DNA of 24,000 nt, taken from positions 100,270 through 124,269 of the forward strand of contig NZ_BAAAHE010000011.1 in the NCBI RefSeq assembly GCF_039525035.1, given 5' to 3'. A program made the position numbers and the translations under genes. Below, in pieces: positions 6,637-24,000 of the stretch. The number at the start of each line of letters is the position of its first letter. Positions within the stretch are counted from its first letter, which is position 1. The notes under the pieces were generated by a model that ran no database searches, was not told the origin of the DNA, and saw only the letters and a list, made by a program, of their open reading frames with translations. The DNA comes from Sporichthya brevicatena. Lineage in GTDB: Bacteria; Actinomycetota; Actinomycetes; Sporichthyales; Sporichthyaceae.

Positions 6637-6685
6637 GAAACAACCTCCGTAGGGCGACAGAGCGATCCCAGCGGCTGCAGCGCGC

Positions 6686-6773: not shown

Positions 6774-7463
6774 ATGTCCATGCCGAGCCCCGCCGAGGCC
6801 CCCGCCCCACGCCCGGCCCTGCGCCTCGTGCTGGTCGACGACCACGAGATGGTGCTGCACGGCCTGACCGCGATGCTGGCCCACTTCTCCGACCAAGTCG
6901 TCATCGCCGGGACGGCGACCACGTACGACCAGGCCCTCGCCCTCGTCGACCGGACGCGTCCCGACGTCGTCCTCTGCGACGTCCGACTCGGCCGCACCAG
7001 CGGGATCGACCTGTGCCAGGCGATCACCACGGCCTACCCCGAGGTCTCCGTTGTCCTGCTCTCGGTCTACGACGACGAGCACTACCTGTTCCAGGCGCTC
7101 CGCGTGGGCGCGCGGGGCTACATCCTCAAGCGCGTTGACGCCGCCGAGCTCGTGACCCACCTCCAGCGTGCCTGTGACGGGGAGACCGTGGTCGACCCGG
7201 CCCTGGCCGGGCGCGTCGCACTGTCCGCCGCGCGCATCCACGCCGGCGAGTTCTGGCCCGGCGCACACCTGGGTCTGACCCAGCGTGAGTCCGAGGTGCT
7301 CGAACTGCTCGTCGCCGGACGTTCCAACCGCGCCATCGCGTCGACGTTGGTGATCAGCGAGGACACGGTGAAGACGCATCTGCGCGGCCTGTACCGGAAG
7401 TTGGAGGTGACCGACCGCGCGGGCGCGGTCTCGGTCGCCCTGCGGGAGGGCATCTTCCGGTGA
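6774..7463 (+). CDS. NarL/FixJ (LuxR-type HTH) family response regulator
   Basis: The REC domain reads LRLVLVDDHEMVL...DVVLCDVRL (phospho-acceptor Asp)...VVLLSVYDD...GYILK. The C-terminal LuxR HTH reads LTQRESEVLELLVAGRSNRAIASTLVISEDTVKTHLRGLYRKLEV. I chose the ATG at 6774 rather than the track's GTG at 6717, so the start is somewhat uncertain. Confidence 0.9.
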   Translation: MSMPSPAEAPAPRPALRLVLVDDHEMVLHGLTAMLAHFSDQVVIAGTATTYDQALALVDRTRPDVVLCDVRLGRTSGIDLCQAITTAYPEVSVVLLSVYDDEHYLFQALRVGARGYILKRVDAAELVTHLQRACDGETVVDPALAGRVALSAARIHAGEFWPGAHLGLTQRESEVLELLVAGRSNRAIASTLVISEDTVKTHLRGLYRKLEVTDRAGAVSVALREGIFR

Positions 7464-8635: not shown

Positions 8636-9719
8636 ACAGCGGGAACTCCGGACGCGCACTCCGGGGCCGGACGCCGCAGGCACGGTCGAGGTGGTAGCCC
8701 TCCACCGCGGCGACCTCGTCGCTTGAGCCGAACACCAACGGCAGACGCTGGTGCAGGGCGGTCGGACTGATGTCGAGGACGCGACCACGCCCGGTGCTCG
8801 CGCACCCTCCCGCCTGCTCGATGACAAACGCGATCGGGTTGCACTCGTACAGCAGCCGCAGCCGTCCCGCCCGCGTCCCGGACCGGCTGTCGGCCGGGTA
8901 GAGGAACACCCCGCCCCGGGTGAGGATCCGGAACGCCTCCGCCACCAGCGAGGCCACCCAGCGCATGTTGTAGTCCTGGCCGCGTGGCCCCGCGCGGCCG
9001 GCGAGGCAGTCGGAGATGAAGTCACGAACGGGCGCCGGCCAGAAGCGCTCGTTCGACACGTTCACCGCGAACTCCGAGGCCGACTCGGGCACCCGCAAAT
9101 GCGGATGGGTCCGCACCAGCACACCGGTGGTGCGGTCGAGCGTGAAGGCCACCGCACCCGCGGCGGTCGCGAGGACGAGCACCGTCGCCGGGCCGTAGAG
9201 CGCGAAGCCGGCGCACACCTGGTCCCGGCCCGGTTGCAGGAACTCGGTGAGGTCCACCTCCGCGCCGGTGCCGGTACGCCGCAGCACCGAGAAGATCGTC
9301 CCCACCGGGATGTTGACGTCGAGGTTGCTCGACCCGTCGAGCGGGTCGACCGCCACCAGGTAGGGCCCACGGGCGTCGGGGAACACCTGCGGCTGCGCGA
9401 GCTCCTCCGACACCACCGCCGCGACCGCGGGCACGTCGCGCAACGCGGTCAGGACGACGTCGTTGCTCAGCACGTCGAGGGGCTTCTGCACCTCGCCCTG
9501 GACGTTGAGCTCCCCCGCGTCGACCGCGGCCGCGGCGAGGCGCCCCGCGCCGACGTGGTCGGCGATCCGCAGGACAGCCTCCCCGAAGGCCCGGATCACG
9601 TCGCCGAGGTCACCGCTGGGGTCGAGGGACCGGATCACGTGGCCGTCGGCGTACTGCTCGAGCGAGACGCGCGCCGCCGCCGAGGACCGCTCGACGACCC
9701 CCGCCACCGACTCACGCAT
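8604..9719 (-). CDS. fbp: Class 1 fructose-1,6-bisphosphatase (likely FBPase/SBPase of the CBB cycle)
   Basis: The protein has the motifs NVQGEVQKPLDVLSND, AVDPLDGSSNLDVNIPVGTIFS, YGPATVLV, MRWVASLVAEAFRIL and GGVFLYPAD...GRLRLLYECNPIAFVIEQAGG. I trimmed the track ORF to the ATG at complement 9719-9717, which overlaps the fba stop (ATGCGTGA). Confidence 0.9.
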   Translation of the reverse strand: MRESVAGVVERSSAAARVSLEQYADGHVIRSLDPSGDLGDVIRAFGEAVLRIADHVGAGRLAAAAVDAGELNVQGEVQKPLDVLSNDVVLTALRDVPAVAAVVSEELAQPQVFPDARGPYLVAVDPLDGSSNLDVNIPVGTIFSVLRRTGTGAEVDLTEFLQPGRDQVCAGFALYGPATVLVLATAAGAVAFTLDRTTGVLVRTHPHLRVPESASEFAVNVSNERFWPAPVRDFISDCLAGRAGPRGQDYNMRWVASLVAEAFRILTRGGVFLYPADSRSGTRAGRLRLLYECNPIAFVIEQAGGCASTGRGRVLDISPTALHQRLPLVFGSSDEVAAVEGYHLDRACGVRPRSARPEFPLFNTRTLFRGR

Positions 9720-10725
9720 GAGCGCCCACGACCGCTCGACGCGCCGCGGCCGCGGCGGCCCGTGCACAGTTCTCCGCCAGCCGGTTCTGAGCTCCCGTCA
9801 CGGCGTTCGGGTTGCCCCGCCAGGTACGGAGCGCGTCGTCGACGAGCGCACGTCCGAACGAGAAGGTCAGCGCCCACGGCGCCGCCTGGTCCTCGCCCGC
9901 CAGCCGGTTGACGGCGGCGAGGTTCGCGCAGGCCTGGGCGTTCGACTGGCCGCCGGAGAGGAACGCGACGCCGGGCACCGCGGAGGGCAGCTGGGCGCGC
10001 AGCACCTTGAGCGTGCGCCGCGCGACCTCCTCCGGCGGGCTCGGGACGGGGCAGGCGTCTCCCGCCACGACCATGTTCGGCTTGAGCACGATGCCGGCCG
10101 GGTCGACGCCGAGAAGGTCGAGTTGGTCGAAGACCTCGCCGAGCACCTTGTGGGTCACCGCCTGGCAGACCTCGATCTCGTGGCGGCCGGTCATCAGGAC
10201 CTCGGGCTCCACGATCGGCACGAGGCCCGCCTCCTGACACAGCGCGGCGTAGCGCGCGAGCGCGTGCGCGTTCGCCTTGACGATGCGCTTGGTCGCCCGC
10301 GACACCTCGAGAACGGCCCGCCACTTGGCGAAGGTCGCGCCCATCTCCCGGTACTCGGCCAGCCGGCCGCCGAGGCCGTCCAGACCCTGGGTCACGACGC
10401 CCCCACCCGAGAACGGCAGGGGCACCGTGCCGGTGTCGACCTTGATGCCGAGTTCGATCTCGCGTTCCCGCGCCGCTACGACGAACGGGGTCCCGTCGGC
10501 CAGCGACTGGCGAAGGGTCTCGTCACAGAGGATCATCCCGGAGACCCAGGTCGATAGCCGAGGGGTCGTCAGCAGCAGTTCGCGGTAGTCCCGCCGCACC
10601 TGCTCCGACGCCGGAACTCCGGCCGCCTCCAGCCGCTTCGACATCGTCCCGATGCTCTCGTCGGCGGCGAGAATTCCGTGCCCGGGCCGCACCAACCGGC
10701 GCGCCGTCGTGGCGAGTTCGTGCAT
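9712..10725 (-). CDS. fba: Class I (Schiff-base, eukaryote-type) fructose-bisphosphate aldolase
   Basis: The protein is near-collinear with animal and plant class I aldolase motifs: GILAADESIGTMSKRL, GIKVDTGTVPL, TQGLDGL, FAKWRAVL, LVPIVEPEVL, VLKPNMVV (Schiff-base Lys context), FLSGGQS and PWALTFSFGRAL. The start is the ATG at complement 10725-10723, with GGGAGG 6 nt upstream. Confidence 0.9.
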   Translation of the reverse strand: MHELATTARRLVRPGHGILAADESIGTMSKRLEAAGVPASEQVRRDYRELLLTTPRLSTWVSGMILCDETLRQSLADGTPFVVAAREREIELGIKVDTGTVPLPFSGGGVVTQGLDGLGGRLAEYREMGATFAKWRAVLEVSRATKRIVKANAHALARYAALCQEAGLVPIVEPEVLMTGRHEIEVCQAVTHKVLGEVFDQLDLLGVDPAGIVLKPNMVVAGDACPVPSPPEEVARRTLKVLRAQLPSAVPGVAFLSGGQSNAQACANLAAVNRLAGEDQAAPWALTFSFGRALVDDALRTWRGNPNAVTGAQNRLAENCARAAAAAARRAVVGAHA

Positions 10726-10811
10726 GTGTGGCCTCCCTGCGCTCCGCGCGCCGTCTCGTCCCACCGAGCCTGCGGTTCATCGCCCGGCGGGCACATCACC
10801 CTGCGGGGGAA

Positions 10812-12371
<1,560 letters not shown>

Positions 12372-12382
12372 GGAGCTCAGCA

Positions 12383-12775
12383 GTGCGCATCACCCAGGGG
12401 ACCTTCTCCTTCCTTCCCGACCTCACCGACGACGAGATCGCCGCCCAGATTCAGTACTGCCTGGATCACGGCTGGCCCCTGTCGATCGAGTTCACCGACG
12501 ACCCGCACCCCCGCAACACCTACTGGGAGATGTGGGGTCTGCCGATGTTCGATCTCGTCGACCCCGCGGGCGTTCTGCTGGAGATCAACGCCTGCCGGCA
12601 GGCACGGCCCGACTGCTACATCCGCGTGAACGCGTACGACGCGAGTCTCGGGCGCCAGACGACCGCGCTGTCGATCCTCGTCCAGCGACCGGCGGACGAG
12701 ACCGGGTTCCGGCTGATCCGGCAGGAGAGCTCCGACCGTCGGATCAGCTACACCACCGAACGCCTCGCGCGATGA
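12383..12775 (+). CDS. cbbS: RuBisCO small subunit, red-type
   Basis: The GTG at 12383 has GAGGAG 7 nt upstream. The protein reads (V/M)[56 protein letters not shown]..., which matches the red-type CbbS N-terminus ([15 protein letters not shown]). It is in frame within track ORF 11864..12775. Confidence 0.95.
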
Positions 12776-13695
12776 CCGAGGAGCTGCTGCCCGCCGACGC
12801 CGTCGTCGACCTGGCCGCGGCGCGGCGGGACGCCGGGATCGACGCGGTCCTGGCGCAGCTCGACACCGAGCTGGTCGGACTGGCCCCGGTGAAGCAACGG
12901 ATCCGCGAGATCGCCGCGCTGCTGCTCGTCGACCGCACGCGCGCCCAGTTCGGCATCACGACGGCCAAACCGAACCTGCACATGTGCTTCACCGGCAACC
13001 CCGGCACCGGGAAGACCACCGTCGCGCTGCGGATGGCCGACCTGCTCCACCGGCTCGGCTACCTCCGCCGCGGCCACCTGGTCAGCGTCACCCGCGACGA
13101 CCTGGTCGGGGAGTACGTCGGGCACACCGCACCGAAGACCAAGGACGTCATCAAGCGCGCCATGGGCGGGGTGCTCTTCATCGACGAGGCGTACTACCTC
13201 TACAAGGTCGGCAACGAGCGGGACTACGGCGCGGAGTCGATCGAGATCCTGCTCCAGGTCATGGAGAACCACCGGGACGACCTCGTCGTCGTTCTCGCCG
13301 GGTACGCCGACAAGATGGACACCTTCTTCGCGGCCAACCCCGGGATGCAGAGCCGGATCGCCCACCACGTGACCTTCCCGGACTACACCGTCGACGAGCT
13401 CCGGCAGATCGCCCATCTGATGGTTGATCAGCTGGGCTACCGGTTCTCCCCCGAAGCCGAGGACGCCCTCACCCGCTACCTCGACCGCCGGGTCGGGCAG
13501 CCGTGGTTCGCCAACGCGCGCAGCGTCCGCAACGCCGTCGAGCGTGCACGACTGCGGCAGGCGCAGCGCCTCGTGGAGGGCGAGAACACTATGGTGACCC
13601 TGGACACGCTGACGACGATTCGGCCCGAGGACATCCTGGCCAGCCGCGTCTTCAGCGAGGCCGCCGAGGCGGGCAGAACCGTCCGCTCGGCCTGA
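12772..13695 (+). CDS. cbbX: CbbX, AAA+ red-type RuBisCO activase
   Basis: The ATG overlaps the cbbS stop (ATGA at 12772-12775). The protein has [22 protein letters not shown], Walker [14 protein letters not shown], Walker [12 protein letters not shown], and LAGY...[24 protein letters not shown]. Confidence 0.92.
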
Positions 13696-13717
13696 CGGCG
13701 AACGGCCAGGAGCGACG

Positions 13718-14593
13718 ATGGCGACGAACTCACGCCTCCGCGTCCTGGTCGAACTGGCGGCGGCCGGCTCGGTGCGGGGCGCCGCCGCGCGCCTGTTCGT
13801 CACCGAGTCCTCGGTGTCGTCCTCCCTCAGCGCGCTCAGCGCCGAGGTAGGCGTGCCCCTGGTGGAGCGGATCGGCCGCGGTGTCCGGCTGACCCCGGCG
13901 GGCGAGCGCTACGTCGCCTACGCCCAGCGCATCCTCAACCTCCACGACGAGGCCGTCCTGGCCGCTCGCGGCGAGGCCGACCCCGAGCACGGTTCGGTCC
14001 GGATCGCCGCGGTCACCACCGCGGGCGAACTGCTCATCCCCGCCCTGCTCGCATCGTTCCGCCGGAAGTACCCGGGCGTGGTGCTCCACGTCGACGTCGC
14101 CCCCCGCGGCCGCGTGTGGCCGATCCTGACACGGCACGAGGCGGATCTCGTCGTGGCCGGGCGACCACCTGCGAGCGTGAACGACGTCCGGGTGTGCGCC
14201 ACCAGCCCCAACACCCTCGTCGTGGTCGGTGCGCCCGGCACCCCGGGCGATCTCGCCACCGTCACCTGGTTGCTGCGGGAACCGGAGTCCGGGGTCCGGG
14301 CGACCTGCCTCGCCCTGCTCGGACGGCTGGAGATCACGCCGCCGCTCATGACCCTCGGCTCGCACGGCGCCGTCGTCGCCGCGGCCGTCGCCGGTCTCGG
14401 CGTCACGATGGTGTCGCGTCAGGCCGTGGAGTCCGAACTCGAGGCCGGGACACTGATCGAGATCGCGGTCCCGGGCACTCCGATGGACCGCCCGTGGAAC
14501 GCGGTGACGCAGATCAGTCCCACCGCACCGACCCGGCTGCTGGTCGAGCACCTGCTCGCCGACACGCACCTCGGCTGGGCGCCGGCGGACTGA
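13718..14593 (+). CDS. cbbR: LysR-family transcriptional regulator (putative CbbR by context)
   Basis: The N-terminal wHTH reads LRVLVELAAAGSVRGAAARLFVTESSVSSSLSALSAEVGVPLVERIGRGVRLTPAGE, followed by a LysR substrate-binding-type C-terminus. AGGAG lies 5 nt upstream of the ATG. The gene starts only 22 nt after the cbbX stop. The CbbR identity is contextual and not shown by sequence alone. Confidence 0.8.
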   Translation: MATNSRLRVLVELAAAGSVRGAAARLFVTESSVSSSLSALSAEVGVPLVERIGRGVRLTPAGERYVAYAQRILNLHDEAVLAARGEADPEHGSVRIAAVTTAGELLIPALLASFRRKYPGVVLHVDVAPRGRVWPILTRHEADLVVAGRPPASVNDVRVCATSPNTLVVVGAPGTPGDLATVTWLLREPESGVRATCLALLGRLEITPPLMTLGSHGAVVAAAVAGLGVTMVSRQAVESELEAGTLIEIAVPGTPMDRPWNAVTQISPTAPTRLLVEHLLADTHLGWAPAD

Positions 14594-14684
14594 CCACCCC
14601 CACGCTCCTCCGCGCGGGTGATGGCAGGACGTCGCCCGCACCGCAGGCTGTGATCAGAGCCCGCGTCAGGTGAGGAGCGAAGTC

Positions 14685-15572
14685 ATGTCACGTCAGCACC
14701 CGATCATCTCGGTCACGGGATCGTCCGGTGCCGGCACGACCTCCGTGATGCGCACGTTCGAGCAGATCTTCCGCCGGGAGCGCATCACCGCCGCGTTCGT
14801 CGAGGGCGACAGCTTCCACCGTTACGACCGCGCGGAGATGCGCGCGGCGATGGCCGAGGCGGCCCGCCGCGGCGACCACTCGTTCAGCCACTTCGGACCC
14901 GAGGCCAACCTCCTGGACGAGCTCGAGGAGCTGTTCCGCGCGTACGGCGAAACCGGGACGGGCCGCGTCCGCCGCTATCTCCACGACGAGGCGGAGGCGG
15001 CGGTGTACGGCCAGGCCCCCGGGACCTTCACGCCCTGGGAGATGCTCCCGACGGACAGCGACCTGCTCTTCTACGAGGGCTTGCACGGCGCCGTCCTCAC
15101 CGACACGGTCGACGTCGCGCGCCACGCGGACCTGAAGATCGGCGTGGTGCCGGCGATCAACCTCGAGTGGATTCAGAAGCTCCATCGCGACAAGCAGGAG
15201 CGCGGGTACTCGACCGAGGCCGTCACCGAGACGATCCTGCGGCGCATGCCGGACTACGTGAACTACATGTGCCCGCAGTTCTCACGCACCGACGTGAACT
15301 TCCACCGGGTTCCCGTGGTCGACACGTCGAACCCCTTCATCGCGCGCACGATCCCGACGGCGGACGAGTCCATGCTGGTGATCCGGTTCCGCGACCCGCA
15401 CGGCATCGACTTCCCCTACCTGATCGCGATGCTGCACGGCTCGTTCATGTCGCGGCCGAACACGATCGTCTGTCCGGGCGGGAAGATCGACCTCGCCATG
15501 CAGCTGATCTTCACGCCGATGGTGCTCCGCCTGATGGAGAACCGGCACACCGAGCTCGCCGTCGCCGGCTGA
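14685..15572 (+). CDS. prk: Phosphoribulokinase
   Basis: The protein starts MSRQHPIISVTGSSGAGTTSV (P-loop). It also has FVEGDSFHRYDR, LFYEGLHG, NLEWIQKLHRDK..RGYS and PDYVNYMCPQFSRTDVNF. The ATG at 14685 has GAGGAG 7 nt upstream, so I trimmed the track ORF 14670. Confidence 0.95.
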   Translation: MSRQHPIISVTGSSGAGTTSVMRTFEQIFRRERITAAFVEGDSFHRYDRAEMRAAMAEAARRGDHSFSHFGPEANLLDELEELFRAYGETGTGRVRRYLHDEAEAAVYGQAPGTFTPWEMLPTDSDLLFYEGLHGAVLTDTVDVARHADLKIGVVPAINLEWIQKLHRDKQERGYSTEAVTETILRRMPDYVNYMCPQFSRTDVNFHRVPVVDTSNPFIARTIPTADESMLVIRFRDPHGIDFPYLIAMLHGSFMSRPNTIVCPGGKIDLAMQLIFTPMVLRLMENRHTELAVAG

Positions 15573-15614
15573 CGCTCCTCGACCCCACCCGACCCGAGCA
15601 AGGAGAGCTCTGCC

Positions 15615-16298
15615 GTGCCCGAGATCGCACCGACGCTCGTCGCGTCAGTCCTGCCCGCGAACTTCGCCGAACTCGGCGACCAGGTCGTCGCGATCGAGCA
15701 GGCCGGGATCGACCGGATCCAGTGGGACGTGATGGACGGCCGGTTCGTCCCGAACCTGACGTTCGGGCCGGACGTGATCGCCGCGTGCCGGGACCGCGTC
15801 ACGATGGGCTTCGAGGCCCACCTGATGGTGGAGCACCCCGACCCGATGCTGTCGCGCTGGGTCGAGGCCGGCTGCGGCATCGTCATCGTGCACGCCGAGG
15901 CCTGCCGGCATCTGCACCGCACGCTGTCGACGATCCGCGAGCTCGGGGCGAGGCCGGGCGTCGCGCTCAACCCCGCAACGGGCCTCGAGACCGTCGAGCA
16001 CGTGCTCGACCTGGTCGACCTGCTGCTGATCATGACTGTGAACCCGGGGTTCGGCGGGCAGGCCTACCTGGCCTCGATGGAGCCGAAGATCGCCGCCGCC
16101 CGCGCCGAGATCGACCGGCGCGGGCTCGACATCGAACTGGAGGTGGACGGCGGTATCGGGCCGGCGACGATCGCCGCGGCCGCCCGGGCCGGGGCTCGCG
16201 TGTTCTGCGCAGGCTCCGCCCTGTTCGCGGGCAACTCCCTGGCCGACCGCGCCGCGGAACTGCGCCGGGCGGCGACGGCGCTCCCCCTCGCTGTGTGA
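15615..16298 (+). CDS. rpe: Ribulose-phosphate 3-epimerase
   Basis: The protein has IQWDVMDGRFVPNLTFGP, FEAHLMV, LIMTVNPGFGGQ and LEVDGGI. The GTG start at 15615 has AGGAG 9 nt upstream. Confidence 0.93.
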   Translation: MPEIAPTLVASVLPANFAELGDQVVAIEQAGIDRIQWDVMDGRFVPNLTFGPDVIAACRDRVTMGFEAHLMVEHPDPMLSRWVEAGCGIVIVHAEACRHLHRTLSTIRELGARPGVALNPATGLETVEHVLDLVDLLLIMTVNPGFGGQAYLASMEPKIAAARAEIDRRGLDIELEVDGGIGPATIAAAARAGARVFCAGSALFAGNSLADRAAELRRAATALPLAV

Positions 16299-16651: not shown

Positions 16652-17500
16652 TCAGGCCGGACAGCGGGCCGGGATCCGCAACAGCTCCGGGTCGAACCGG
16701 GCCCGGAGCTCGGTGGAGGCGGCCGCCGCGCGGACGATCATCACCGCGTCGTCGGGGCGGTCCTTCACGTCGACCGCCGCGCTGTCCGGGCCGTCCCGGT
16801 GGGCCATGAGCCAGTCGTAGAGCATCCAGTCGAGCGCACTCGCCGCGGTCATCGCGTCGAGGTCGTCCGTGGGGAGCGCCGCGAGCACCTCGCCGATCGC
16901 CGCGCGGTGCTCGTCGCGGGCGGCGTCCTTCTGCACTCCCGAGCTGTCGAACAGGAGCATCGACAGCGTCGCCGGCAGGCGGCGGCCGTCCTCGGTGCGC
17001 ACGACCCAGCGCGCGCCGCGCCAGGGCCGGTCGCCGTCGACCCACACCAGGTCGCCGTACCCGGCGACGACACCGATCCCGGGCTCGTCGAGCTCACCCT
17101 CGAACGGGGCCGGCCCGAGCAGCGACAGCGGGCGACGGGCCATCACGCTCATGAGGAACGCCGTCCCGAGAATCTGGCCCGCTCGGGTCGAGATCACCGC
17201 TCCCATCGACTCGACGGCCGCGTGGTACTCCCAGCTGAGCCGGTCCATCGCGCGGTGCAGCTCGCGCAGCCCGGTGCGTTCGGCGTCGTCCGCCGGGCCA
17301 CGGCCGCCGCCGAGGATCTCGCCGAAACGCCCGGCGGCGATGATGAGCGCGTCGTCCAACGCCTCCAGGTGGGTCGGCAGCAGGCGGCGGGGCTCGTCGT
17401 CGGTCTTCACCAACGCGTCGAGCCGGACCGGCACACCGGTCGGGGTGGACCAGTGGAACCCGATCTGGCCCTCGTCCTGCACGATCACCGGCCGCGTCAC
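16652..17500 (-). CDS. Hypothetical protein (282 aa), last gene of the hyp operon ('X4')
   Basis: The GTG start (complement 17500-17498) overlaps the stop of the upstream gene (GTGA). The protein starts VTRPVIVQDEGQIGFHWSTP... Its composition is globular and it has no motif I recognise. I trimmed the track ORF 16652..17587. Confidence 0.65.
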   Translation of the reverse strand: MTRPVIVQDEGQIGFHWSTPTGVPVRLDALVKTDDEPRRLLPTHLEALDDALIIAAGRFGEILGGGRGPADDAERTGLRELHRAMDRLSWEYHAAVESMGAVISTRAGQILGTAFLMSVMARRPLSLLGPAPFEGELDEPGIGVVAGYGDLVWVDGDRPWRGARWVVRTEDGRRLPATLSMLLFDSSGVQKDAARDEHRAAIGEVLAALPTDDLDAMTAASALDWMLYDWLMAHRDGPDSAAVDVKDRPDDAVMIVRAAAASTELRARFDPELLRIPARCPA

Positions 17501-18261
17501 GACGTCCCCCGCTGCGCCACCAGTTCCAGTTGCCGCATCAGATCGGCCTCCAGCCGTGTCACCTCGAACTCGGTCAGGCGGTCGCACGCGAAGTCCCAGT
17601 GCAGCGCCACGAGGTCGCCCTCGACGGGGTCGGCGACGAAGGCGTCACCGTCGACCCGGTAGTCCACCCGACGGTCGTACTCCGCGCTCAGGCTCAGCCG
17701 CCCGTCGGTGAGGTCCAGTCGGCGCGTGCGCACGGTCAACTGGTCCGCGTGGACGGCGATGACCCGGCCCCAGCCGATCCGGCAGGACTCCAGGACGTGC
17801 AGCGGCTCCGGGCGGCCGGCGTCGAGCAGCCGGGACCATGGGTACACCCCGAAGACGTGGAAGGTGTGCGAGGGCGCCACCTCCGCACTCAGGTCCTCCG
17901 ACAGGTGCGGCCAGTAGTGCCCGGCCTGCGCACGGAGGTTGCTCAGCAGAACCTCGGCGAACTGCTCGCGCGGCAGCTCGTCGGTCAACTGGTTACCCAC
18001 CCAGTACCCGCGGACCACGTCCGGGTCCATGGGCGAACGGCCCGTCAGATTCGCGATGGTCTCCTGGTACGGCCACGCCCCCGAGAAGCGTCGCGCGGCG
18101 GCCTCGACCGCAGCGGGCTCGTCCTGACCGCAGGCGGCCCGAGCGAGCACCGCGGCCCCGGCCGGGCCGCAGTACCCGAGCGCGTTCGGGCCGTGCGCGT
18201 ACCGGGCGAACAGCACGGATCCGCTGACGCCCTCGGCGAGGAGCCGGTCAGCGCGCGGCAC
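17497..18261 (-). CDS. Hypothetical protein (254 aa, 'X3'): unknown N-terminal domain + C-terminal HypC-like domain
   Basis: The proposed GTG start (complement 18261-18259) overlaps the hypD 3' end by 14 nt. The upstream part of track ORF 17497..18669 is an out-of-frame shadow of hypD. The N-terminal region reads LFARYAHGPNALGYCGP...HVFGVYPWSRLL. The C-terminal region, SCRIGWGRVIAV...VEGDLVALHWDFACDRLTEFEVTRLEADL, parallels HypC (MCLGIPGQVVEV...VGDWVLVHVGFAMALIDEAEA). The exact start is uncertain. Confidence 0.65.
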   Translation of the reverse strand: MPRADRLLAEGVSGSVLFARYAHGPNALGYCGPAGAAVLARAACGQDEPAAVEAAARRFSGAWPYQETIANLTGRSPMDPDVVRGYWVGNQLTDELPREQFAEVLLSNLRAQAGHYWPHLSEDLSAEVAPSHTFHVFGVYPWSRLLDAGRPEPLHVLESCRIGWGRVIAVHADQLTVRTRRLDLTDGRLSLSAEYDRRVDYRVDGDAFVADPVEGDLVALHWDFACDRLTEFEVTRLEADLMRQLELVAQRGTS

Positions 18262-19381
18262 CCGCGCCCACCATCTGCGCGGTCTCGCGGTGCAGCCGCC
18301 CGAAGTTGTAGTACGCGGCGCACGCGCCCTCGGAGGACACCATGCACGTGCCGATCGGGGTGGCCGGTGTGCACGCCGTGCCGAAGACCTTGCACTCCCA
18401 CGGGCGGATGACCCCCTTGAGCACCTCGCCGCACTGGCACGCCTTCGGGTCGGCCACCCGGACGCCGGGCATGCCGTAGCGTGCCTCGGCGTCGAACTGC
18501 GCGAGGTCCGAGCGCACCCGCAGCGCGCTTTGGGAGATGAAGCCGAGACCTCGCCACTCGAAGTGCGGACGCAGCTCGAACGTGCGCGCCAGCAGCTCCA
18601 GCGCGGCCGGGTTGCCCTCGGGCCGGACCACGCGGCTGTACTGGTTCTCCACCTCGCACCGGCCCTCACGGATCTGCGTGAGCAGCATGTGCACGGACGC
18701 GAGGATGTCGAGCGGCTCGAACCCGGCCACGACGATCGGCAGGCCGTACTGCTTCGGGATGAACTCGTAGGGCCGCGTGCCGACGACGGTCGAGACGTGG
18801 CCCGGGCCGAGGAACCCGTTGAGGCGCATGTCCGGCGAGTCGAGGATCGCCTTGATCGGCGGGACGATCGTGACGTGGTTGGAGAAGACGCTGAAGTTCG
18901 TCACGCCCAGGTCGCCGGCACGCATCAGGGTCACCGCGGTCGAGGGAGCCGTGGTCTCGAAGCCGACCGCGAAGAAGACCACCTCGCGGTCCGGGTTCTC
19001 CACCGCGATCTTCAGCGCGTCGAGCGGTGAGTAGACGAACCGCACGTCGGCGCCGCGGGCCTTGGCGTCGAGCAGGCTGCCGTTCGAGCCCGGCACCCGC
19101 ATCATGTCGCCGAACGTCGTGAAGATGACGTTCGGCTGCTCCGCCAGCCAGATGGCGTCGTCGACGCGACCCATGGGGATCACGCAGACCGGGCAGCCCG
19201 GCCCGTGCACGAGCTCCACGTTCGACGGCAGGAGGTGCTCGAGGCCGTGCCGGTAGATCGTGTGCGTGTGGCCACCGCAGACCTCCATGAACGCGAACCT
19301 GTCCTCGCCCGCCAGGTCGGCGATGGCGGCGACCAGGCTGCGCGCCGCCGCGGGGTCACGGAACTCGTCGACGAACTTCAT
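18248..19381 (-). CDS. hypD: [NiFe]-hydrogenase maturation protein HypD
   Basis: The protein has MKFVDEFRD, MEVCGGHTH, HGPGCPVCV, FFAVGFETTAP, GPGHVS, and the C-terminal Cys cluster ...CQCGEVLKG...CKVFGTACTPATPIGTCMVSSEGACAAYY. Confidence 0.95.
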   Translation of the reverse strand: MKFVDEFRDPAAARSLVAAIADLAGEDRFAFMEVCGGHTHTIYRHGLEHLLPSNVELVHGPGCPVCVIPMGRVDDAIWLAEQPNVIFTTFGDMMRVPGSNGSLLDAKARGADVRFVYSPLDALKIAVENPDREVVFFAVGFETTAPSTAVTLMRAGDLGVTNFSVFSNHVTIVPPIKAILDSPDMRLNGFLGPGHVSTVVGTRPYEFIPKQYGLPIVVAGFEPLDILASVHMLLTQIREGRCEVENQYSRVVRPEGNPAALELLARTFELRPHFEWRGLGFISQSALRVRSDLAQFDAEARYGMPGVRVADPKACQCGEVLKGVIRPWECKVFGTACTPATPIGTCMVSSEGACAAYYNFGRLHRETAQMVGAGAAR

Positions 19382-19686
19382 CGGACACTCCCTTCGGGAA
19401 GCGCGCCGCTGGCGGCGCCGAAATCGGAGGACGCGAACGCGGCTATCTCGTCGACGTACTCCTGGCCCATGCGCTGGACCTGGTCAAGGGTCGCCTTGGC
19501 CTCGGCCTCGTCGATGAGCGCCATCGCGAAGCCGACGTGCACCAGGACCCAGTCCCCCACGTCCGGGGGCTGGGCGGCGAGCAGGCGAGTGCTGATCACG
19601 CGGCGTACGCCACTGACGTCGACCTTCGCGAGATGACCGGCGGCGTCGACGACCTCGACGACCTGACCGGGGATCCCCAGGCACAT
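19378..19686 (-). CDS. hypC: HypC/HybG/HupF-family hydrogenase chaperone (copy 2, 102 aa)
   Basis: The protein starts MCLGIPGQVVEV (N-terminal Cys2) and contains DVGDWVLVHVGFAMALIDEAEA. AAGGAG lies 6 nt upstream of the ATG. Its stop overlaps the hypD start (ATGA). Confidence 0.9.
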   Translation of the reverse strand: MCLGIPGQVVEVVDAAGHLAKVDVSGVRRVISTRLLAAQPPDVGDWVLVHVGFAMALIDEAEAKATLDQVQRMGQEYVDEIAAFASSDFGAASGALPEGSVR

Positions 19687-19737
19687 GACGCGCTCCTTCT
19701 GACGTTCCGACAGATACTGCTGGCGATCAGCGGGTGA

Positions 19738-20835
19738 TCAGCAGATGCGGGGCAGCGGGTCGCCGACGAGCATGTCGACGATCCGGGTGCCGCCGAACGG
19801 GGTCCGCATGGCGACCATGCCGCCGGGGTTCTCGACGATCTCGCCGACCACCGCCGCGGATCCGCCGCCGGCGGTCTCGCGCAGCGCGACGACCGCCGCC
19901 TCGGCCTCCTCGGGCGCGACGATCGCGGTGAACACGCCCTCGTTCGCGACGTGGACCGGGTCGATGCCGAGCATGTCGCAGGCGCCGAGCACGGCCGGCG
20001 CCACCGGCAGCAGACCCTCGTCGAGCACGACCCCGAGCCCGGTCTGACCGGCGAGCTCGTTGCAGACCGTGGCCAGGCCCCCACGGGTGGCGTCGCGCAT
20101 CCAGCGGGTCGACGGGGCGGCCACCAGCAGGGCGGCCACCTGCTCGTGCAGCGCCATGGTGTCCGAGCTGATGTCGGCCTCGATGTCCAGGTTGCCGCGG
20201 GCGAGCATCACCGCCATGCCGTGGGCGCCGAGCGGACCGGACACGACGACGCGGTCGCCGGCCCGGACCCGGTCGGCCGCGAGCGAGACGCCCGCCGGGA
20301 CGACGCCGACACCCGCCGTGGAGATGTACAGCCCGTCGGCCGTGCCGCGGGGCACGACCTTGGTGTCGCCGGTGACGACGTGGACGCCGGCGTTCGCGGC
20401 CGCCTCGCGCATGTCGGCGACGATCCGCTTGAGGTCCTCGACCGGGAAGCCCTCCTCCAGCACGAAGGCGGCGGAGAGCCACTGCGGCACGGCCCCGGAG
20501 ACGGCGAGGTCGTTGACCGTCCCGTGCACGGCGAGGTGCCCGATCGAGCCGCCCGGGAAGAACAGCGGCTGCACGACGAAGGAGTCGGTCGAGAAGGCGA
20601 GCCGTTCCCCCGACGGCAGTTCCAGGACCGCCCCGTCCCCCAGGTTCTCCAGCTCGGGGTTGCGGAACGCCTCGACGAAGACGTGGTCGATCAGGGCCGC
20701 CGAGGACTTGCCGCCGGCCCCGTGCGCCATCGTCACGACGGAGTCGGTGAACCGCGGGCGGCGCTTACGGAACTCCTCGATGCGCAGGAGCATCCGCCCC
20801 TCGGCGTCGACCTGGGTCGCTGGATCCGGGGACAT
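19738..20835 (-). CDS. hypE: [NiFe]-hydrogenase maturation protein HypE
   Basis: The protein starts MSPDPATQ... It has an AIR-synthase-like fold signature (MAHGAGGKSS, HGTVNDLAVSGA, VTGDTKV) and the C-terminal PRIC motif. The start is the ATG at complement 20835-20833, sharing 1 nt with the upstream stop (TGATG). The first 246 codons of track ORF 19738..21573 are a shadow over the SIS gene. Confidence 0.95.
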   Translation of the reverse strand: MSPDPATQVDAEGRMLLRIEEFRKRRPRFTDSVVTMAHGAGGKSSAALIDHVFVEAFRNPELENLGDGAVLELPSGERLAFSTDSFVVQPLFFPGGSIGHLAVHGTVNDLAVSGAVPQWLSAAFVLEEGFPVEDLKRIVADMREAAANAGVHVVTGDTKVVPRGTADGLYISTAGVGVVPAGVSLAADRVRAGDRVVVSGPLGAHGMAVMLARGNLDIEADISSDTMALHEQVAALLVAAPSTRWMRDATRGGLATVCNELAGQTGLGVVLDEGLLPVAPAVLGACDMLGIDPVHVANEGVFTAIVAPEEAEAAVVALRETAGGGSAAVVGEIVENPGGMVAMRTPFGGTRIVDMLVGDPLPRIC

Positions 20836-21509
20836 CACGCACCTCCGTTGACGTGGGCCGGTGACGACAGGGTTTCCTGGACGGTCGACCACAGGTGCCA
20901 GGCGAGGTGCGCCTGTGCTTCCTGGATCCGGTGCACGCTCTGCGACGCGACGGTGAAGCTGAAGTCCACGTCGTCGCTGACGCCGAGGCGGCCACCGTCG
21001 TAGCCGGAGAACGAGATCGTGAGCATCCCGCGCCGCCGGGCCTCGCCCATCGCGACGACGAGGTCCTCCGAGCAGCCGGACGTGGACAGCGCGAGCGCGA
21101 TGTCGGTCGAGCGGCCGCAGGCGACGAGCTGCCGGGCGAACACGAGGTCGAAACCGACGTCGTTGCTGAGCGCGGTGAGGATCGCCTGGTCGTCGGACAG
21201 GCACCAGGCGGGCAGCGACTGGCCGCGCGGTGCCCGCGCGAACAGCGACGCCACGGTGGTCGCATCGGTCGAGGAGCCGCCGTTGCCGAACGTGTAGAGG
21301 CGGCCGCCGGCCCGGAACCGGGCCACCATGGCCTGCGCCGCCGCGCCGATCCTCTCGGCGTGCTCGGCCACGGTCCGCCGCTGCAGCGCAGAGCTCTCGT
21401 CGATCTTCGCGCGGGCCGACGCCGCCAGGTCGGCCAGCAGCTTCTCGGGGTTGTCCTCGCTGGCGTCGAGGAACGGGTAGAGGAAGCCGGTCTCGTTCAC
21501 CGCGGTCAT
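20835..21509 (-). CDS. SIS-domain protein, GmhA/DiaA-like (phosphoheptose-isomerase-like), hyp-operon embedded ('X2')
   Basis: The protein is collinear with GmhA. It has YTFGNGGSSTDATTVASLF (compare CGNGGSHCDAMHFAEEL), LSNDVGFDLVFARQL, DIALALSTSGCSEDLV, ISFSGYDGG and VHRIQEAQAHLAWHLW. Its start overlaps the stop of the upstream gene (ATGA). Confidence 0.85.
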   Translation of the reverse strand: MTAVNETGFLYPFLDASEDNPEKLLADLAASARAKIDESSALQRRTVAEHAERIGAAAQAMVARFRAGGRLYTFGNGGSSTDATTVASLFARAPRGQSLPAWCLSDDQAILTALSNDVGFDLVFARQLVACGRSTDIALALSTSGCSEDLVVAMGEARRRGMLTISFSGYDGGRLGVSDDVDFSFTVASQSVHRIQEAQAHLAWHLWSTVQETLSSPAHVNGGA

Positions 21510-22228
21510 GACGGGCTCCCCACGCGCGCCAGCGCGAAGCCGGCGTGGACGAGGAGCAGGTCGCCGATCGCAACCTCGCCGACGAGGGTCACGTCGACCT
21601 CCTCGCTGCCCAGACCGGCACGCACCCGCGCAGCCTCACCCGGACCGAGCGGCGGGGTGACGACCTCACCGAGGCGGCCCTCGTCACTGCACGTGATGCA
21701 CGTACCCTCGGCGGTCGGCGGCTCCGGTTCGAGCAGCCCCGGGTGCTCGAAGCAGACGTGGGTCAGTTCCCAGAGCAGGTGGTAGAGCCGGACGTAGCCG
21801 CCGGCCAGCGGTGCGGCCGGGTCGTCGGTGTCGAGCCAGAGCACGTGGTCGGCCGCGCCAGGCTCGGGCCGCACACCGGAACCGATCCACACGGTGGTCA
21901 GACCCCACGCCGGCGCGCGGAGCAGCAGGTCGCGGGCGACGGGGTCGTCGGCGCGGGCGATGACGCAGAGCAGGTCTCCCGCCTGGGTGAGGACGCGGGC
22001 CTGGGCGGCACGGTCAGCCTCGGCGAGAACGAACGCGGGCAGGGCACGCGTGCCGACGATGACCGGGTGCACGAACTCCACCGCGACGTGGTGGGCGTGC
22101 GAGGGCCAGTCGGGCGCCGCGACCCACAGCGTCGCGCCGGCGTGGAACCGGCGAGCCATCGCGAGCGCGGCCGCCGCCAGGTCCTCGGACAGTGCGGCGT
22201 CGGAGACGGGCGGGAGCGTCGCGGTCAT
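21506..22228 (-). CDS. Fusion protein ('X1', 240 aa): degenerate SIS-like N-terminal domain + C-terminal HypC-like domain
   Basis: The ATG at complement 22228-22226 overlaps the stop of the preceding hypC (ATGA). The N-terminal part is GmhA-like in layout (RFHAGATLWVAAPDWPSHAHHVAVEFVHP...GDLLCVIARADDP...VWIGSG...YVRLYHLLWELTHVCFE), but the GNGGS loop is replaced by AAPDWPS. The C-terminal part, TCITCSDEGRLGEVV...EVDVTLVGEVAIGDLLLVHAGFALARV, parallels HypC. I trimmed the track ORF 21506..22468. Confidence 0.75.
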   Translation of the reverse strand: MTATLPPVSDAALSEDLAAAALAMARRFHAGATLWVAAPDWPSHAHHVAVEFVHPVIVGTRALPAFVLAEADRAAQARVLTQAGDLLCVIARADDPVARDLLLRAPAWGLTTVWIGSGVRPEPGAADHVLWLDTDDPAAPLAGGYVRLYHLLWELTHVCFEHPGLLEPEPPTAEGTCITCSDEGRLGEVVTPPLGPGEAARVRAGLGSEEVDVTLVGEVAIGDLLLVHAGFALARVGSPS

Positions 22229-22470
22229 GACTCGCTCATCTCGTCGAGCAGGCCGAACTCCTGCATGAGGCCGACGGTGCGCTCGGCCTCCTCCGGCGTC
22301 ACCCGGGTGAGCGCGTACCCCGCGTGGACGATGACGTAGTCCCCGACGGCGAGATCGGGCAGGTAGTCGAGGCACACGGCGCGCGACTCCCCCACGAAAT
22401 CGACGTCGGCCATGACTCGTCCTCCGCCGGACTCGATCGATGTGATGCGACCGGGCACCGCAAGACACAT
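22225..22470 (-). CDS. hypC: HypC/HybG/HupF-family hydrogenase chaperone (copy 1, 81 aa)
   Basis: The protein starts MCLAVPGRITSI and contains AVGDYVIVHAGYALTRVTPEEAE. Its ATG lies 1 nt after the hypF stop. Confidence 0.9.
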   Translation of the reverse strand: MCLAVPGRITSIESGGGRVMADVDFVGESRAVCLDYLPDLAVGDYVIVHAGYALTRVTPEEAERTVGLMQEFGLLDEMSES

Positions 22471-22471
22471 C

Positions 22472-24000
22472 TCAGTCCCTCCTTCCCTTGCGCAGCATTG
22501 CTCGGGCGACGACGGCCTGGCCTAGGGCCAGTCCACCGTCGTTACCGGGAATCCGACTGTGCGTCAGCACATCCAGGTCGCGGCGGGCCAGCGCCCGCGC
22601 GAGGTCACGCGCCAGGATGCGGTTGGCGAACACTCCACCCGAGATCCCGACGGTGCGCACTCCGGTCCGGTCGGCCGTCGCCGTCAGCAGCTCGACCGTC
22701 GCAGCGGTGAGCGCCTCGTGGAAGCCGAGCGCGATGTTCGGCACCGGCACACCGGCGTCGCGGGCCGCCACGACCGCCGCCACGAGGGGGCCGACCAGGA
22801 TTCGGCCGTCGACGACCGGCGCCGACAGCGGATGGGCGGCGCTCGCCGTCGCGGCCGCGGCCTCGAGTTCGATCGCCGCCTGCGCCTCGTACGTGATCGC
22901 GTGCCGGACGCCCAGCAGGGAGGCGACACCGTCGAACAGCCGGCCCACGCTGCTGGTCGGCACGCACGCGATGCCGGAGCGGAGCTGGCTGCGCACCGCC
23001 GCCACGGCGGCCTCGGGCACCCCGGCCGGCGTCCAGTCCCGGCCGGCCAGACCGGCGTGGTGGAGAAGGGCGAGCGCGACACGGAACGGCTGGCGGACCG
23101 CCACGTCGCCACCGGGCAACGGGAACTCCTCCAGGTGGCCGACGCGCTCGGCGGTCGTGACGTCCTCGCCGATCGCGAGGATCTCCCCGCCCCACACGTG
23201 GCGGTCGCAGCCGAGGCCGGTGCCGTCGAAGACCGCCCCGATCACCGGGCGGCCGACCCGGCCGTGCTCGGCGAGCAGGGACGCGAGGTGCGCGTGGTGG
23301 TGCTGAACCGGCAGCAGCGGCAGGTTCTCGGCCTCGGCCCGCTCCGCCGCCCAGCGACTGGTGAGGAAGCCGGGGTGCAGGTCGGCGGCGACGGCCTGCG
23401 GCGGCACGCCGTGCAGCGCGATCAGGTGGTCGACCGAGCGGAGGAACGCCTCGCGCGCCTCCAGCGTCGACATGTCACCGAGGTGCGCGGAGGTGTAGGC
23501 GTTCGGCCCGGCGGCGATCGTGATCGTGTTCTTCAGTTCCGCACCGACCGCGAGCACCACGGTGTCCGTCGCGGGGATCTCGGTCGGCAACGGGGCCATC
23601 CCCCGCGAACGGCGGAGCACGACCTCGACGTCCGGCCGCACCCCGTCCTCGATGCGGACGATGGAGTCCTCGCACGGCACGGCGATCGGGCGGTCGTTGA
23701 TGAGGAATGCGTCGGCGATGCCGGCCATGCGGGTCCGCGCGTCGTCGTCCTGCCAGCACAGGGGCTCGCCGGACAGGTTCGCCGACGTCATCACGAGGAC
23801 GTCGGGCGGCGGCACGTCGGAGCCGGGCACCGACGCGAACAGCAGGTGGTGCAGCGGCGTGTAGGGCAGCATCAGGCCGAGTTCGTCGAGGCGGGGCGCG
23901 ACCGCGTCGACGATCCCGCTCCCGGGCCGCCGGCGCAGCAGCACGATCGGCGCGGCGGTGGAGGTCAGCGCGCGCTCGGCTGCGCTGCCGACCTCCACCA
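22472..24000 (-). CDS. hypF: Carbamoyltransferase HypF, C-terminal portion (gene continues beyond the window)
   Basis: The YrdC-like region reads LPYTPLHHLL...LVMTSANLSGEPL. The Kae1/HypF C-terminal region reads LAVGAELKNT...HLGD...VQHHHAHLAS...FDGTGLGCD..VWGGE...GISGGVFAN..L. The frame is open to the window edge, so the apparent start at 23998 is an artefact. Confidence 0.93.
   Translation of the reverse strand, partial: VEVGSAAERALTSTAAPIVLLRRRPGSGIVDAVAPRLDELGLMLPYTPLHHLLFASVPGSDVPPPDVLVMTSANLSGEPLCWQDDDARTRMAGIADAFLINDRPIAVPCEDSIVRIEDGVRPDVEVVLRRSRGMAPLPTEIPATDTVVLAVGAELKNTITIAAGPNAYTSAHLGDMSTLEAREAFLRSVDHLIALHGVPPQAVAADLHPGFLTSRWAAERAEAENLPLLPVQHHHAHLASLLAEHGRVGRPVIGAVFDGTGLGCDRHVWGGEILAIGEDVTTAERVGHLEEFPLPGGDVAVRQPFRVALALLHHAGLAGRDWTPAGVPEAAVAAVRSQLRSGIACVPTSSVGRLFDGVASLLGVRHAITYEAQAAIELEAAAATASAAHPLSAPVVDGRILVGPLVAAVVAARDAGVPVPNIALGFHEALTAATVELLTATADRTGVRTVGISGGVFANRILARDLARALARRDLDVLTHSRIPGNDGGLALGQAVVARAMLRKGRRD

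Follow-up and report, generated by a model that had tools for sequence, protein, structure and literature searches.

Two HypC-like fusion proteins with putative intrachain metal sites in the hyp operons of actinobacterial oxygen-insensitive hydrogenases

The question raised by this locus is what a HypC domain can do when its key cysteine lies in the interior of a longer chain. In canonical HypC, Cys2 together with Cys41 of HypD holds the Fe(CN)2CO unit, and HypC alone then carries it into the hydrogenase large subunit (PMC11565642). We analyzed a stretch of 24,000 nucleotides from Sporichthya brevicatena (contig NZ_BAAAHE010000011.1, positions 100,270 to 124,269 of the forward strand), referred to below as the window. 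A hyp operon on its minus strand encodes four HypC-like sequences: two small canonical proteins and the C-terminal parts of two larger proteins, here called X1 and X3. In X1 a HypC-type OB domain follows a degenerate GmhA-like domain, while in X3, a member of the DUF6390 family, a more remotely HypC-like OB domain follows an all-helical domain. The preliminary description of this DNA, made from its letters alone, had singled out one buried cysteine in each fusion and proposed that the proteins could act as adaptors, scaffolds or competitors. We find instead that this cysteine belongs to invariant sets of cysteines and histidines drawn from both domains. As far as sequence allows, the evidence favors intramolecular metal sites in proteins that would act as sensors or chaperones over a passive adaptor or competitor role. 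The four genes are:

22225..22470, minus strand: hypC-a, 81 residues (MCLAVPG...HAGYAL), matching PF01455 and TIGR00074, identical to WP_344603443.1
21506..22228, minus strand: X1, 240 residues, GmhA-like SIS domain (degenerate) followed by a Cys/His knuckle and an OB domain of the HypC type, identical to WP_344603441.1
19378..19686, minus strand: hypC-b, HypC/HybG-like, 102 residues (MCLGIPG...HVGFAM), matching PF01455 and TIGR00074, directly upstream of hypD
17497..18261, minus strand: X3, 254 residues, PF19927/DUF6390, 100% identical to the NCBI 'DUF6390 family protein' of S. brevicatena

HypC-type domains with an internal cysteine

The two small genes are canonical, as had been proposed. 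Each matches the HypC profiles over its full length and begins Met-Cys, with PF01455 and TIGR00074 scores of 86.2 and 61.6 bits for hypC-a and 88.2 and 88.8 bits for hypC-b (PF01455 E ~1e-25 for both; cut-offs 28.5 bits for PF01455 and 48 for TIGR00074). All four HypC-like sequences lie where the preliminary description placed them, with X3 the remote case, and the gene boundaries of X1, X3, both hypC genes and ORFd, the last gene of the operon, equal the NCBI gene calls exactly.

X1 matches PF01455 with 32.7 bits (E 8e-8) over residues 198–236, corresponding to profile positions 15–53 of 65, a match that leaves out the N-terminal cysteine region and the C-terminal helix of HypC. With TIGR00074 it scores 23.4, under the cut-off. 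To compare profiles, we used hhalign with a reference set of 123 canonical HypC proteins from related loci, all with a Met-Cys start. Over 54 columns, residues 172–240 of X1 aligned to this set at 97.6% (P 4e-12); the control, the N-terminal domain of X1, gave P 0.11. The AlphaFold2 model (predicted local distance difference test score, pLDDT, 86.6; predicted template modeling score, pTM, 0.84) has an alpha/beta domain at residues 11–166, a flexible linker at 167–176 with low pLDDT, a short helix at 178–181 that carries the CxxC, and five strands between 185 and 236; the OB domain is predicted without the terminal helix of HypC. The preliminary description had called the N-terminal half of X1 a SIS domain, and the fold bears this out: a Foldseek search returned GmhA (5lu7_A, E 6e-9, target TM score about 0.67). 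The domain has no Pfam match at E ≤ 1 and reached only E 0.09 in a PDB profile search; the Pfam SIS_2 match belongs to the next gene. Along the chain, X1 is divided as follows:

21731..22198, minus strand: residues 11–166, GmhA-like alpha/beta domain with H47 and E51 retained and the phosphate loops GNGGS and STSG lost
21689..21760, minus strand: residues 157–180, motif H157-x-C159-xx-H162 ... C177-x-x-C180, from a motif census and invariance count
21509..21700, minus strand: residues 177–240, HypC-type OB domain with the GDLLLVH228AGFA motif, from hhalign and AlphaFold2

X1 has more than 5,780 homologs, and residue conservation was counted in 200 distinct ones. C177 and C180 are present in 200/200, with no start codon in front of them in X1. 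H228, which is the histidine of the HypC motif GDxVLVHxGFA (His51 in E. coli, His45 in T. kodakarensis), is likewise present in 200/200. Each member of the set H157, C159, H162, C177, C180 and H228 occurs in at least 197 of the 200, and a second group of residues, H44, H47, E51, H54, H128, H150, E154 and H157, is invariant (198–200/200). E161, D182 and E183 are also invariant or nearly so. Between H162 and C177 lie 12–20 variable residues, depending on the homolog. An extra cysteine five residues before C177, giving C-x4-C-x-x-C, was seen in at least 92 of 121 X1 homologs and is missing in the subclade of the window. Judged from these alignments, X1 carries a HypC-type OB domain that keeps the equivalents of both the HypC cysteine and the conserved histidine.

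X3 is a clear member of DUF6390, matching PF19927 with 303.4 bits (cut-off 25, E 1.5e-90) from residue 13 to 251 on profile positions 4–240 of 244. With hhalign, residues 155–254 aligned to HypC at 94.8% (P 5e-8) in a stretch that takes in the GDxVxxHxxFA motif and the beginning of the helix, and the X3 N-terminal domain as a control gave P 0.63. The AlphaFold2 model (pLDDT 93.5, pTM 0.90) shows helices up to residue 160, strands between 163 and 229 and a helix at 231–251. A Foldseek search of 350,542 PDB chains returned only OB folds for X3, with HypC (2z1c_B) at rank 2 and having the highest identity (23%), and no match in the PDB for the helical domain. The top PDB sequence match of the family profile was also a HypC, that of T. 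kodakarensis, at a non-significant E of 0.11. The two parts of X3 are:

17782..18252, minus strand: residues 4–160, all-helical domain with the GYC31GP and H132-x-F-H135 motifs, from the AlphaFold2 secondary structure
17509..17784, minus strand: residues 160–251, HypC-like OB domain and C-terminal helix, starting at C160, with the GDLVALH221W motif and C226, from hhalign and Foldseek

In an extended hhalign alignment, SC160RIGWG of X3 falls on MC2LGIPG of HypC, gap-free and at low column confidence, and H221 aligns to the HypC-motif histidine; C160 and H221 thus occupy the positions of HypC Cys2 and the conserved histidine. No start codon precedes C160. A search of 1.84 billion cluster representatives (50% identity clusters) found 1,498 DUF6390 clusters with E ≤ 1e-3, of which 980 reached E ≤ 1e-10. 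Among the 149 best, mutually diverse representatives, C160 (141/141) and H221 (118/118) are invariant, C31 (128/129) and H132 (145/146) almost so, and C226 (109/118) and H135 (132/146) highly conserved. The ligand-type residues of X3 thus fall into two pairs, one on each domain: C31 and H132 on the helical domain, C160 and H221 on the OB domain. We also looked for a full-length profile likeness between X3 and X1. The only match, a weak one, aligned the C-terminus of X3 with the HypC part of a HypC–X1 fusion described below, and thus reflects HypC similarity.

Both larger proteins hence end in a HypC-type domain with an internal equivalent of Cys2, as first described. They share with HypC and HybG the OB fold, the cysteine just before strand 1, the histidine of the GDxVxVHxGFA-type motif (H228 in X1, H221 in X3) and the location in a hyp operon. 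In contrast to HypC, the cysteine is not a processed N-terminus, the domain is only the C-terminal part of a protein of 240–254 residues, and the fused domain contributes further invariant cysteines and histidines. X1 differs in addition by its CxxC, its missing C-terminal helix and its TIGR00074 score, and X3 by an inserted hairpin, by HW-F-C in place of H-GFA and by the lack of a Pfam HypC match. On sequence grounds we regard X1 and X3 as partly HypC-like, and not as HypC members in the strict sense. The earlier contention that neither can act as HypC does, through a free N-terminal cysteine, is reasonable, as in current models the Cys2 N-terminus of HypC reaches into HypD and into the large subunit (PMC11565642).

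The putative SIS partner of X1 and the fusion partners of DUF6390

The gene behind X1 encodes a second GmhA-related protein:

20835..21509, minus strand: SIS, a GmhA paralog of 224 residues, Pfam SIS_2

To see how regularly the two genes go together, X1 loci were collected by a pattern scan with one genome per species. This gave at least 599 loci, of which the best 80 were analyzed; they come mostly from Mycobacteriales, Pseudonocardia, Dactylosporangium, Acidimicrobiales and other Actinomycetota, with one metagenome-assembled genome labeled Sericytochromatia. SIS stands directly behind X1 in 80/80. SIS matches SIS_2 with 62 bits (cut-off 27) and PDB GmhA with E 4e-23, its GmhA and DiaA sequence matches ranging from about 1e-23 to 1e-21. 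With the NCBIfam gmhA equivalogs it scores 105–112 bits, below their cut-offs of 209–276. The catalytic zinc of B. pseudomallei GmhA is coordinated by H64, E68, Q175 and H183, and three chains meet at each active site (PMC5705639). In the numbering of that enzyme, with a census of 81 SIS orthologs, the residues are distributed over the two proteins as follows:

GNGGS, D61, S123/T124 and Q175/E176: present in 80–81/81 SIS orthologs; in X1, the phosphate loops and the Q175 segment are lost
H64: never His in SIS (Thr in the window); H47 in X1
E68: never Glu in SIS (Leu in the window); E51 in X1
H183: Trp in the SIS protein of the window; tentatively H150 in X1

The assignment of H47 and E51 to H64 and E68 was obtained in two independent alignments, to the B. 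pseudomallei and the E. coli enzymes, and X1 has a histidine in place of D61. Neither chain holds the full zinc and catalytic set together with the phosphate loops, and from these alignments neither the X1 N-terminal domain nor SIS can be a GmhA alone. We considered SIS as a housekeeping GmhA for heptose synthesis and rejected this, since H64 and E68 are absent in all orthologs and H183 is absent in the window protein. What the pair shares with GmhA and DiaA (SIS_2, PF13580) is the predicted fold and the H64/E68 equivalents in residues 11–166 of X1, and the sequence match of SIS; what sets the pair apart is that the zinc ligands and phosphate loops are split over two proteins, and that no GmhA carries a HypC-like domain. 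From this complementary loss of residues, a pattern to be expected of paralogs that function only in combination, we infer that X1 and SIS assemble into a GmhA-like hetero-oligomer whose sites are composite.

X1 also appears to be tied to HypC itself. A metagenomic protein of 331 residues (P0083, from a cluster of five sequences) consists of a canonical HypC (MCLGIPG...) joined in frame to an entire X1. This fusion provides a Rosetta-stone link between HypC-a and X1, and suggests that the two act together.

DUF6390 has fusions of a different kind. A Pfam scan of ten DUF6390 proteins of exceptional length showed a second domain in seven, drawn from five helix-turn-helix (HTH) families and one transporter family:

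P0252: MarR, C-terminal
P0253: GntR, N-terminal
P0307: PadR, N-terminal
P0342: PadR, N-terminal
P0375: XRE/HTH_3, N-terminal
P0374: ArsR/HTH_5, N-terminal
P0362: EamA transporter, N-terminal

C31, H132, C160 and H221 are retained in all seven. We examined the neighborhoods of these fusions (contigs L083 and L086–L094). P0252 and P0307 directly adjoin hypC. P0375 comes after hypC, and two family-5 (Opp/NikA-type) ATP-binding cassette (ABC) systems flank it; NifU-Rieske, maturation protease and hydrogenase large subunit genes follow. Behind P0342 lie an unknown gene and an ABC system of family 5, whose binding protein is closest in NCBIfam to nickel_nikA (150 bits, below cut-off). P0374 sits between a HoxN/NixA-family nickel/cobalt permease (TIGR00802, 347 bits against a cut-off of 333) and an MFS transporter, near hypA, a CbiA/ParA-type ATPase gene, a protease and hydrogenase subunits. 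P0253 overlaps the beginning of an ABC importer similar to iron or phosphonate systems, with a hydrogenase small subunit 8 kb away, and P0362 adjoins an Nramp gene and a hydrogenase. A side observation from the PadR loci is a protein of 394 residues with no Pfam or NCBIfam family, encoded between the PadR-DUF6390 regulator and the NikA-like ABC transporter (L090, 2466–3650, plus strand; L091, 2335–3519, plus strand).

A domain found attached to five DNA-binding families that are unrelated to one another is typically the effector-binding domain of one-component regulators. Since the fusions adjoin hypC, nickel-type transporters and hydrogenase genes, we read DUF6390 as a putative metal-binding or metal-sensing module. 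The ligand would most likely be nickel, with iron possible; as hypC is a recurrent neighbor, the signal might also be a species bound to HypC. DUF6390 resembles nickel sensors and metallochaperones such as NikR, RcnR/InrS, the ArsR-family NmtR and HypA/HypB in its Cys/His set, its fusion to HTH domains and its nickel-importer and hyp neighborhood. Its fold, helical plus HypC-like OB, is not known to be related to that of any described nickel sensor. The strict pairing of X1 with SIS, the HypC–X1 fusion and DUF6390 as a putative sensor domain of HTH regulators were all absent from the preliminary description.

Gene order, hydrogenase types and neighboring genes

The preliminary description dealt with one operon. 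The fusions are not peculiar to it; they are standard content of the hyp operons of actinobacterial group 1h and Huc-type hydrogenases. The block hypF-(hypC or X3-like)-X1-SIS-hypE-hypC-hypD-(X3) recurs throughout the 80 loci, and 62 of them contain a DUF6390 gene. In 16 loci, a DUF6390 paralog 31–41% identical to X3 lies between hypF and X1, in the slot that hypC-a takes in the window (L002–L004, L006–L012, L016, L020, L031, L039, L048 and L052, at about 9100–9950 in locus coordinates). These are mostly from Mycobacterium, nearly all have a group 1h-type large subunit upstream, and none has DUF6390 behind hypD. C31, H132, H135, C160, H221 and C226 are kept in both subgroups, the one in the hypF–X1 slot and the one behind hypD. 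In 42/80 loci the upstream genes include a large subunit that contains TSRICGICGDNH and SFDPCLPCGVHM, motifs which we take to be group 5/1h signatures.

The window ends within hypF, and the genes beyond were read from the contig of the closest relative (P0001, 90% identical), where the order of the window, with hypC-a between hypF and X1 and ORFd after X3, is the same. There, hypF is preceded by a small subunit of 307 residues, a large subunit of 535 residues, three genes, NifU-Rieske and an NHL-repeat gene. A Pseudonocardia locus (L043) likewise has a small subunit, a 535-residue large subunit and NifU-Rieske before the hyp genes, with a sub-threshold TPR match and no NHL-repeat gene. The Huc-type large subunit of L043 (1230–2837, plus strand) has SFDSCLVCTVH as its C-terminal motif, with DSC..C where DPC..C is usual. 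The layout of the relative and of L043 is that described for 'synton-2' of the Frankia group 2a hydrogenase, hypF2-hypC2b-hypothetical-gmhA-hypE2-hypC2a-hypD2, in which X1 is the gene called hypothetical (PMC11879354); the module therefore appears to serve both hydrogenase groups. The gene order of the window is of the Huc-like type, which is probably group 2a. The Hhy cluster of M. smegmatis has the same order, with hypC MSMEG_2712, hypF 2711, gmhA 2706, hypE 2705, hypC 2703 and hypD 2702 (PMC2799521, PMC5445863). In the hyd4 set of C. necator as listed (hypF3, C2, D2, E2, A3, B3), no such module is named. Among the loci covered here, the X1/SIS/DUF6390 module is the norm in hyp operons of oxygen-insensitive uptake hydrogenases, both group 1h (Hhy-type) and Huc-like.

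In the window, which has a G+C content of about 72%, the minus-strand order hypF–hypC-a–X1–SIS–hypE–hypC-b–hypD–X3–ORFd forms one tightly packed operon at 16652–23998. The members not yet listed are:

22472..23998, minus strand: hypF, 5' end cut by the window end, Pfam HypF_C_2, HypF_C and Sua5_yciO_yrdC, heading the conserved block in the 80 loci
19738..20835, minus strand: hypE, 365 residues (the same length in the closest relative), Pfam AIRS and AIRS_C
18248..19381, minus strand: hypD, PF01924 518 bits, TIGR00075 497.7 bits
16652..17500, minus strand: ORFd, a conserved hypothetical protein of 282 residues equal to WP_344603429.1

The TGA stop of hypC-a overlaps the ATG of X1 as ATGA, the X1/SIS junction is another ATGA overlap, the SIS stop codon overlaps the hypE ATG by one base, X3 starts with a GTG that overlaps the 3' end of hypD, and the X3 stop and ORFd start overlap as GTGA. 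Such stop/start overlaps along the operon imply co-translation. ORFd has no Pfam or NCBIfam family match. A gene of this kind follows DUF6390 only in loci with the Huc-type order of the window, namely L023, L043, L069 and L079 (54–62% identity) and, as a gene of 285 residues, on the contig of the closest relative.

A complete Calvin-Benson cluster adjoins the hyp operon, spanning 4561–16298 of the window on both strands:

4561–6636, minus strand: transketolase
6717–7463, plus strand: LuxR-type response regulator, within the cluster
7460–8635, plus strand: GAF-HisKA_3 histidine kinase, within the cluster
8604–9767, minus strand: fructose-1,6-bisphosphatase (FBPase)
9712–10764, minus strand: class I aldolase
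10848–12371, plus strand: RuBisCO large subunit, cbbL
12374–12775, plus strand: RuBisCO small subunit, cbbS
12532–13695, plus strand: open reading frame of a CbbX-type AAA protein, the true start probably after 12775
13718–14593, plus strand: LysR regulator
14670–15572, plus strand: phosphoribulokinase
15615–16298, plus strand: ribulose-phosphate epimerase

At the left edge of the window (3–1328, minus strand) lies a gene for an HATPase_c_2 protein; this protein, the response regulator and the histidine kinase may be regulators of the autotrophy genes. With the Calvin-cycle cluster beside the hyp operon, the organism looks like a hydrogen-oxidizing autotroph, which suggests hydrogen-driven CO2 fixation.

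Proposed intrachain metal sites and the alternatives

How could a HypC-type domain with an internal cysteine be used? In our preferred explanation, X1 and X3 would be hyp accessory proteins in which the fused N-terminal domain supplies the partner ligands that otherwise come from HypD, so that a metal site would form within a single chain. The stand-alone form of X3 could then be a metal-handling chaperone or sensor that docks where HypC docks. In X1, the GmhA-derived domain, which keeps zinc and catalytic residues and lacks the sugar-phosphate loops, would be joined to the knuckle and OB domain, and X1 and SIS would form a platform with composite sites that works together with HypC-a in the maturation of oxygen-insensitive hydrogenases. 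For this explanation as a whole we see about an even chance. The Cys/His sets are thus read as putative intramolecular metal sites, in place of the adaptor or competitor role first proposed.

A bolder version gives DUF6390 the larger part. It would be a metal-sensing fold not recognized before, with nickel the likeliest metal, built from the helical domain and the HypC-type OB domain, in which the HypC cysteine and histidine have become half of a Cys2His2 intrachain site. The fold would be used in two ways, as the effector of MarR-, GntR-, PadR-, XRE- and ArsR-type regulators controlling nickel import for hydrogenases, and as a stand-alone chaperone in the maturation of hydrogenases that oxidize atmospheric H2. 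In parallel, X1 and SIS would be an obligate heteromer derived from GmhA, its active site split over the two chains, that passes a metal or ligand on to HypC. Taken with all its parts this version is tentative; we think it possible and do not expect all of it to hold.

Several observations weigh against the preferred explanation. The expectation that both larger proteins would match the HypC family held for X1 and failed for X3, which has no PF01455 match at E ≤ 1 and whose likeness to HypC appears only in profile-profile and fold comparison; even there, the hhalign alignment is confident over only 26 columns and the Foldseek match to 2z1c_B is weak (E only 0.02). The likeness of X3 to HypC is thus remote. 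In X1, the equivalence of H150 to GmhA H183 comes from one low-confidence alignment. The Huc operon of M. smegmatis apparently reads hypF-hypC-hypD-hypE with nothing between (PMC2799521, PMC5445863), and the module may be needless for some Huc-type enzymes. As for the metal, only seven fusion neighborhoods were examined, and their transporters are mixed: one firm HoxN/NixA permease, two NikA-like binding proteins below cut-off and one iron/phosphonate-like ABC importer. Adjacency to transporters is also weak evidence for a ligand, since nickel transporters are common in hydrogenase clusters anyway.

Of the alternatives, the one that survives best takes X1 and X3 to be oxygen-protective scaffolds or carriers of Fe(CN)2CO, an actinobacterial counterpart of HupF/HoxL and HupK/HoxV. 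The iron fragment would pass from HypC-HypD onto the Cys/His site, be shielded there in air and be handed to the large subunit. Both proteins do keep the cysteine and histidine positions of HypC, whose Cys2 carries Fe(CN)2CO (PMC11565642), the operons belong to aerobic, oxygen-insensitive hydrogenases, and two canonical hypC genes are present in addition in every locus. HupF and HoxL are, similarly, extra HypC-related factors beside the standard hypC in hydrogenases synthesized under oxygen, and the proteobacterial HypC paralogs and scaffold are likewise limited to hydrogenases made in air (PMC3534401). However, HupF, which works together with the HupK scaffold, is a HypC paralog made of one domain plus a short extension at its C-terminus (PMC3534401), HupK resembles a large subunit, and neither contains a SIS or a DUF6390 helical domain. 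Some X1 homologs are automatically named 'HupF' in NCBI and UniRef. The architecture of X1 does not support this name: HupF and HoxL are HypC paralogs of about 100 residues with a C-terminal extension, and X1 has 240 residues and an N-terminal GmhA-like domain. No hupK/hoxV-type gene for a large-subunit-like scaffold is found in the hyp block. Three further points speak against the scaffold proposal. The DUF6390 fusions to DNA-binding domains and a transporter fit a ligand sensor better. X1 lacks the C-terminal helix of HypC, the part that moves on ATP binding in HypCD (PMC11565642). An internal cysteine flanked by other ligand-type residues could not enter the HypD pocket as a free N-terminus does. 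On balance we judge Fe(CN)2CO carriage by X1 and X3 unlikely.

X1 and SIS could also be an active sugar-phosphate metalloenzyme that feeds cofactor synthesis, for example with the CO ligand under aerobic conditions, the HypC-like domain channeling the product. The pair jointly retains all the zinc ligands and phosphate loops of GmhA and is strictly co-encoded between hypF/hypC and hypE, and no aerobic source of CO is known for organisms without HypX. Yet an intact geometry of the composite site is an assumption from alignments, X1 swaps D61 for a histidine and adds invariant histidines and cysteines foreign to GmhA, and GmhA relatives such as DiaA, which is among the structure and sequence matches, are non-enzymatic scaffolds. 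No chemistry is known that would lead from a phosphorylated heptose or ketose to CO or CN, and we regard an enzymatic role as improbable. Decoys or negative regulators that compete with HypC for HypD or the large subunit, the competitor idea of the preliminary description, would be expected to show a HypC-like surface without a free N-terminal cysteine, as X1 and X3 do. For that purpose a dozen invariant histidines and cysteines and a dedicated partner would be superfluous, and in every locus translation of the genes is coupled to that of core hyp genes, which makes such competition improbable. That the fusions are artefacts of a sequencing frameshift or a miscalled start, hiding separate small Met-Cys reading frames, is effectively refuted: gene calling is error-prone in overlapping genes of high G+C content, and no direct support for an error was found, whereas proteins of the same length and domain layout are found in thousands of independent sequences (more than 5,780 X1 homologs and about 1,500 DUF6390 clusters), the internal cysteines have no start codon, Met or otherwise, in front of them, the AlphaFold2 models are confident over the domain junctions apart from the X1 linker, and the gene boundaries equal the NCBI calls.

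Our preferred explanation, accessory proteins with putative intrachain metal sites, concerns genes that have gone without a description. As the preliminary description supposed, no function has been reported in the literature that we found for fusions like X1 and X3, and X1 is labeled 'hypothetical protein' in Frankia (PMC11879354). Literature searches returned no study describing DUF6390 and no functional description of the X1/SIS pair or of a HypC with a SIS or GmhA domain, including searches with locus tags of M. smegmatis and C. necator.

Aerobic soil bacteria can live on atmospheric H2 by means of group 1h and group 2a hydrogenases, enzymes that are also pursued as oxygen-stable catalysts. 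How the active sites of these hydrogenases are assembled in air is little understood. Three uncharacterized genes, those for X1, its SIS partner and DUF6390, are present in most hyp operons of bacteria that oxidize atmospheric H2, and for each of these genes there is now a structural hypothesis with named residues. The Hhy cluster of M. smegmatis, with the same hyp/gmhA gene order in published tables, offers a tractable model. If X1, SIS and DUF6390 are required maturation factors, they would be candidates for the missing parts in the heterologous production of these hydrogenases, and if DUF6390 is a metal sensor, its fusions would represent a new family of metal-responsive regulators.

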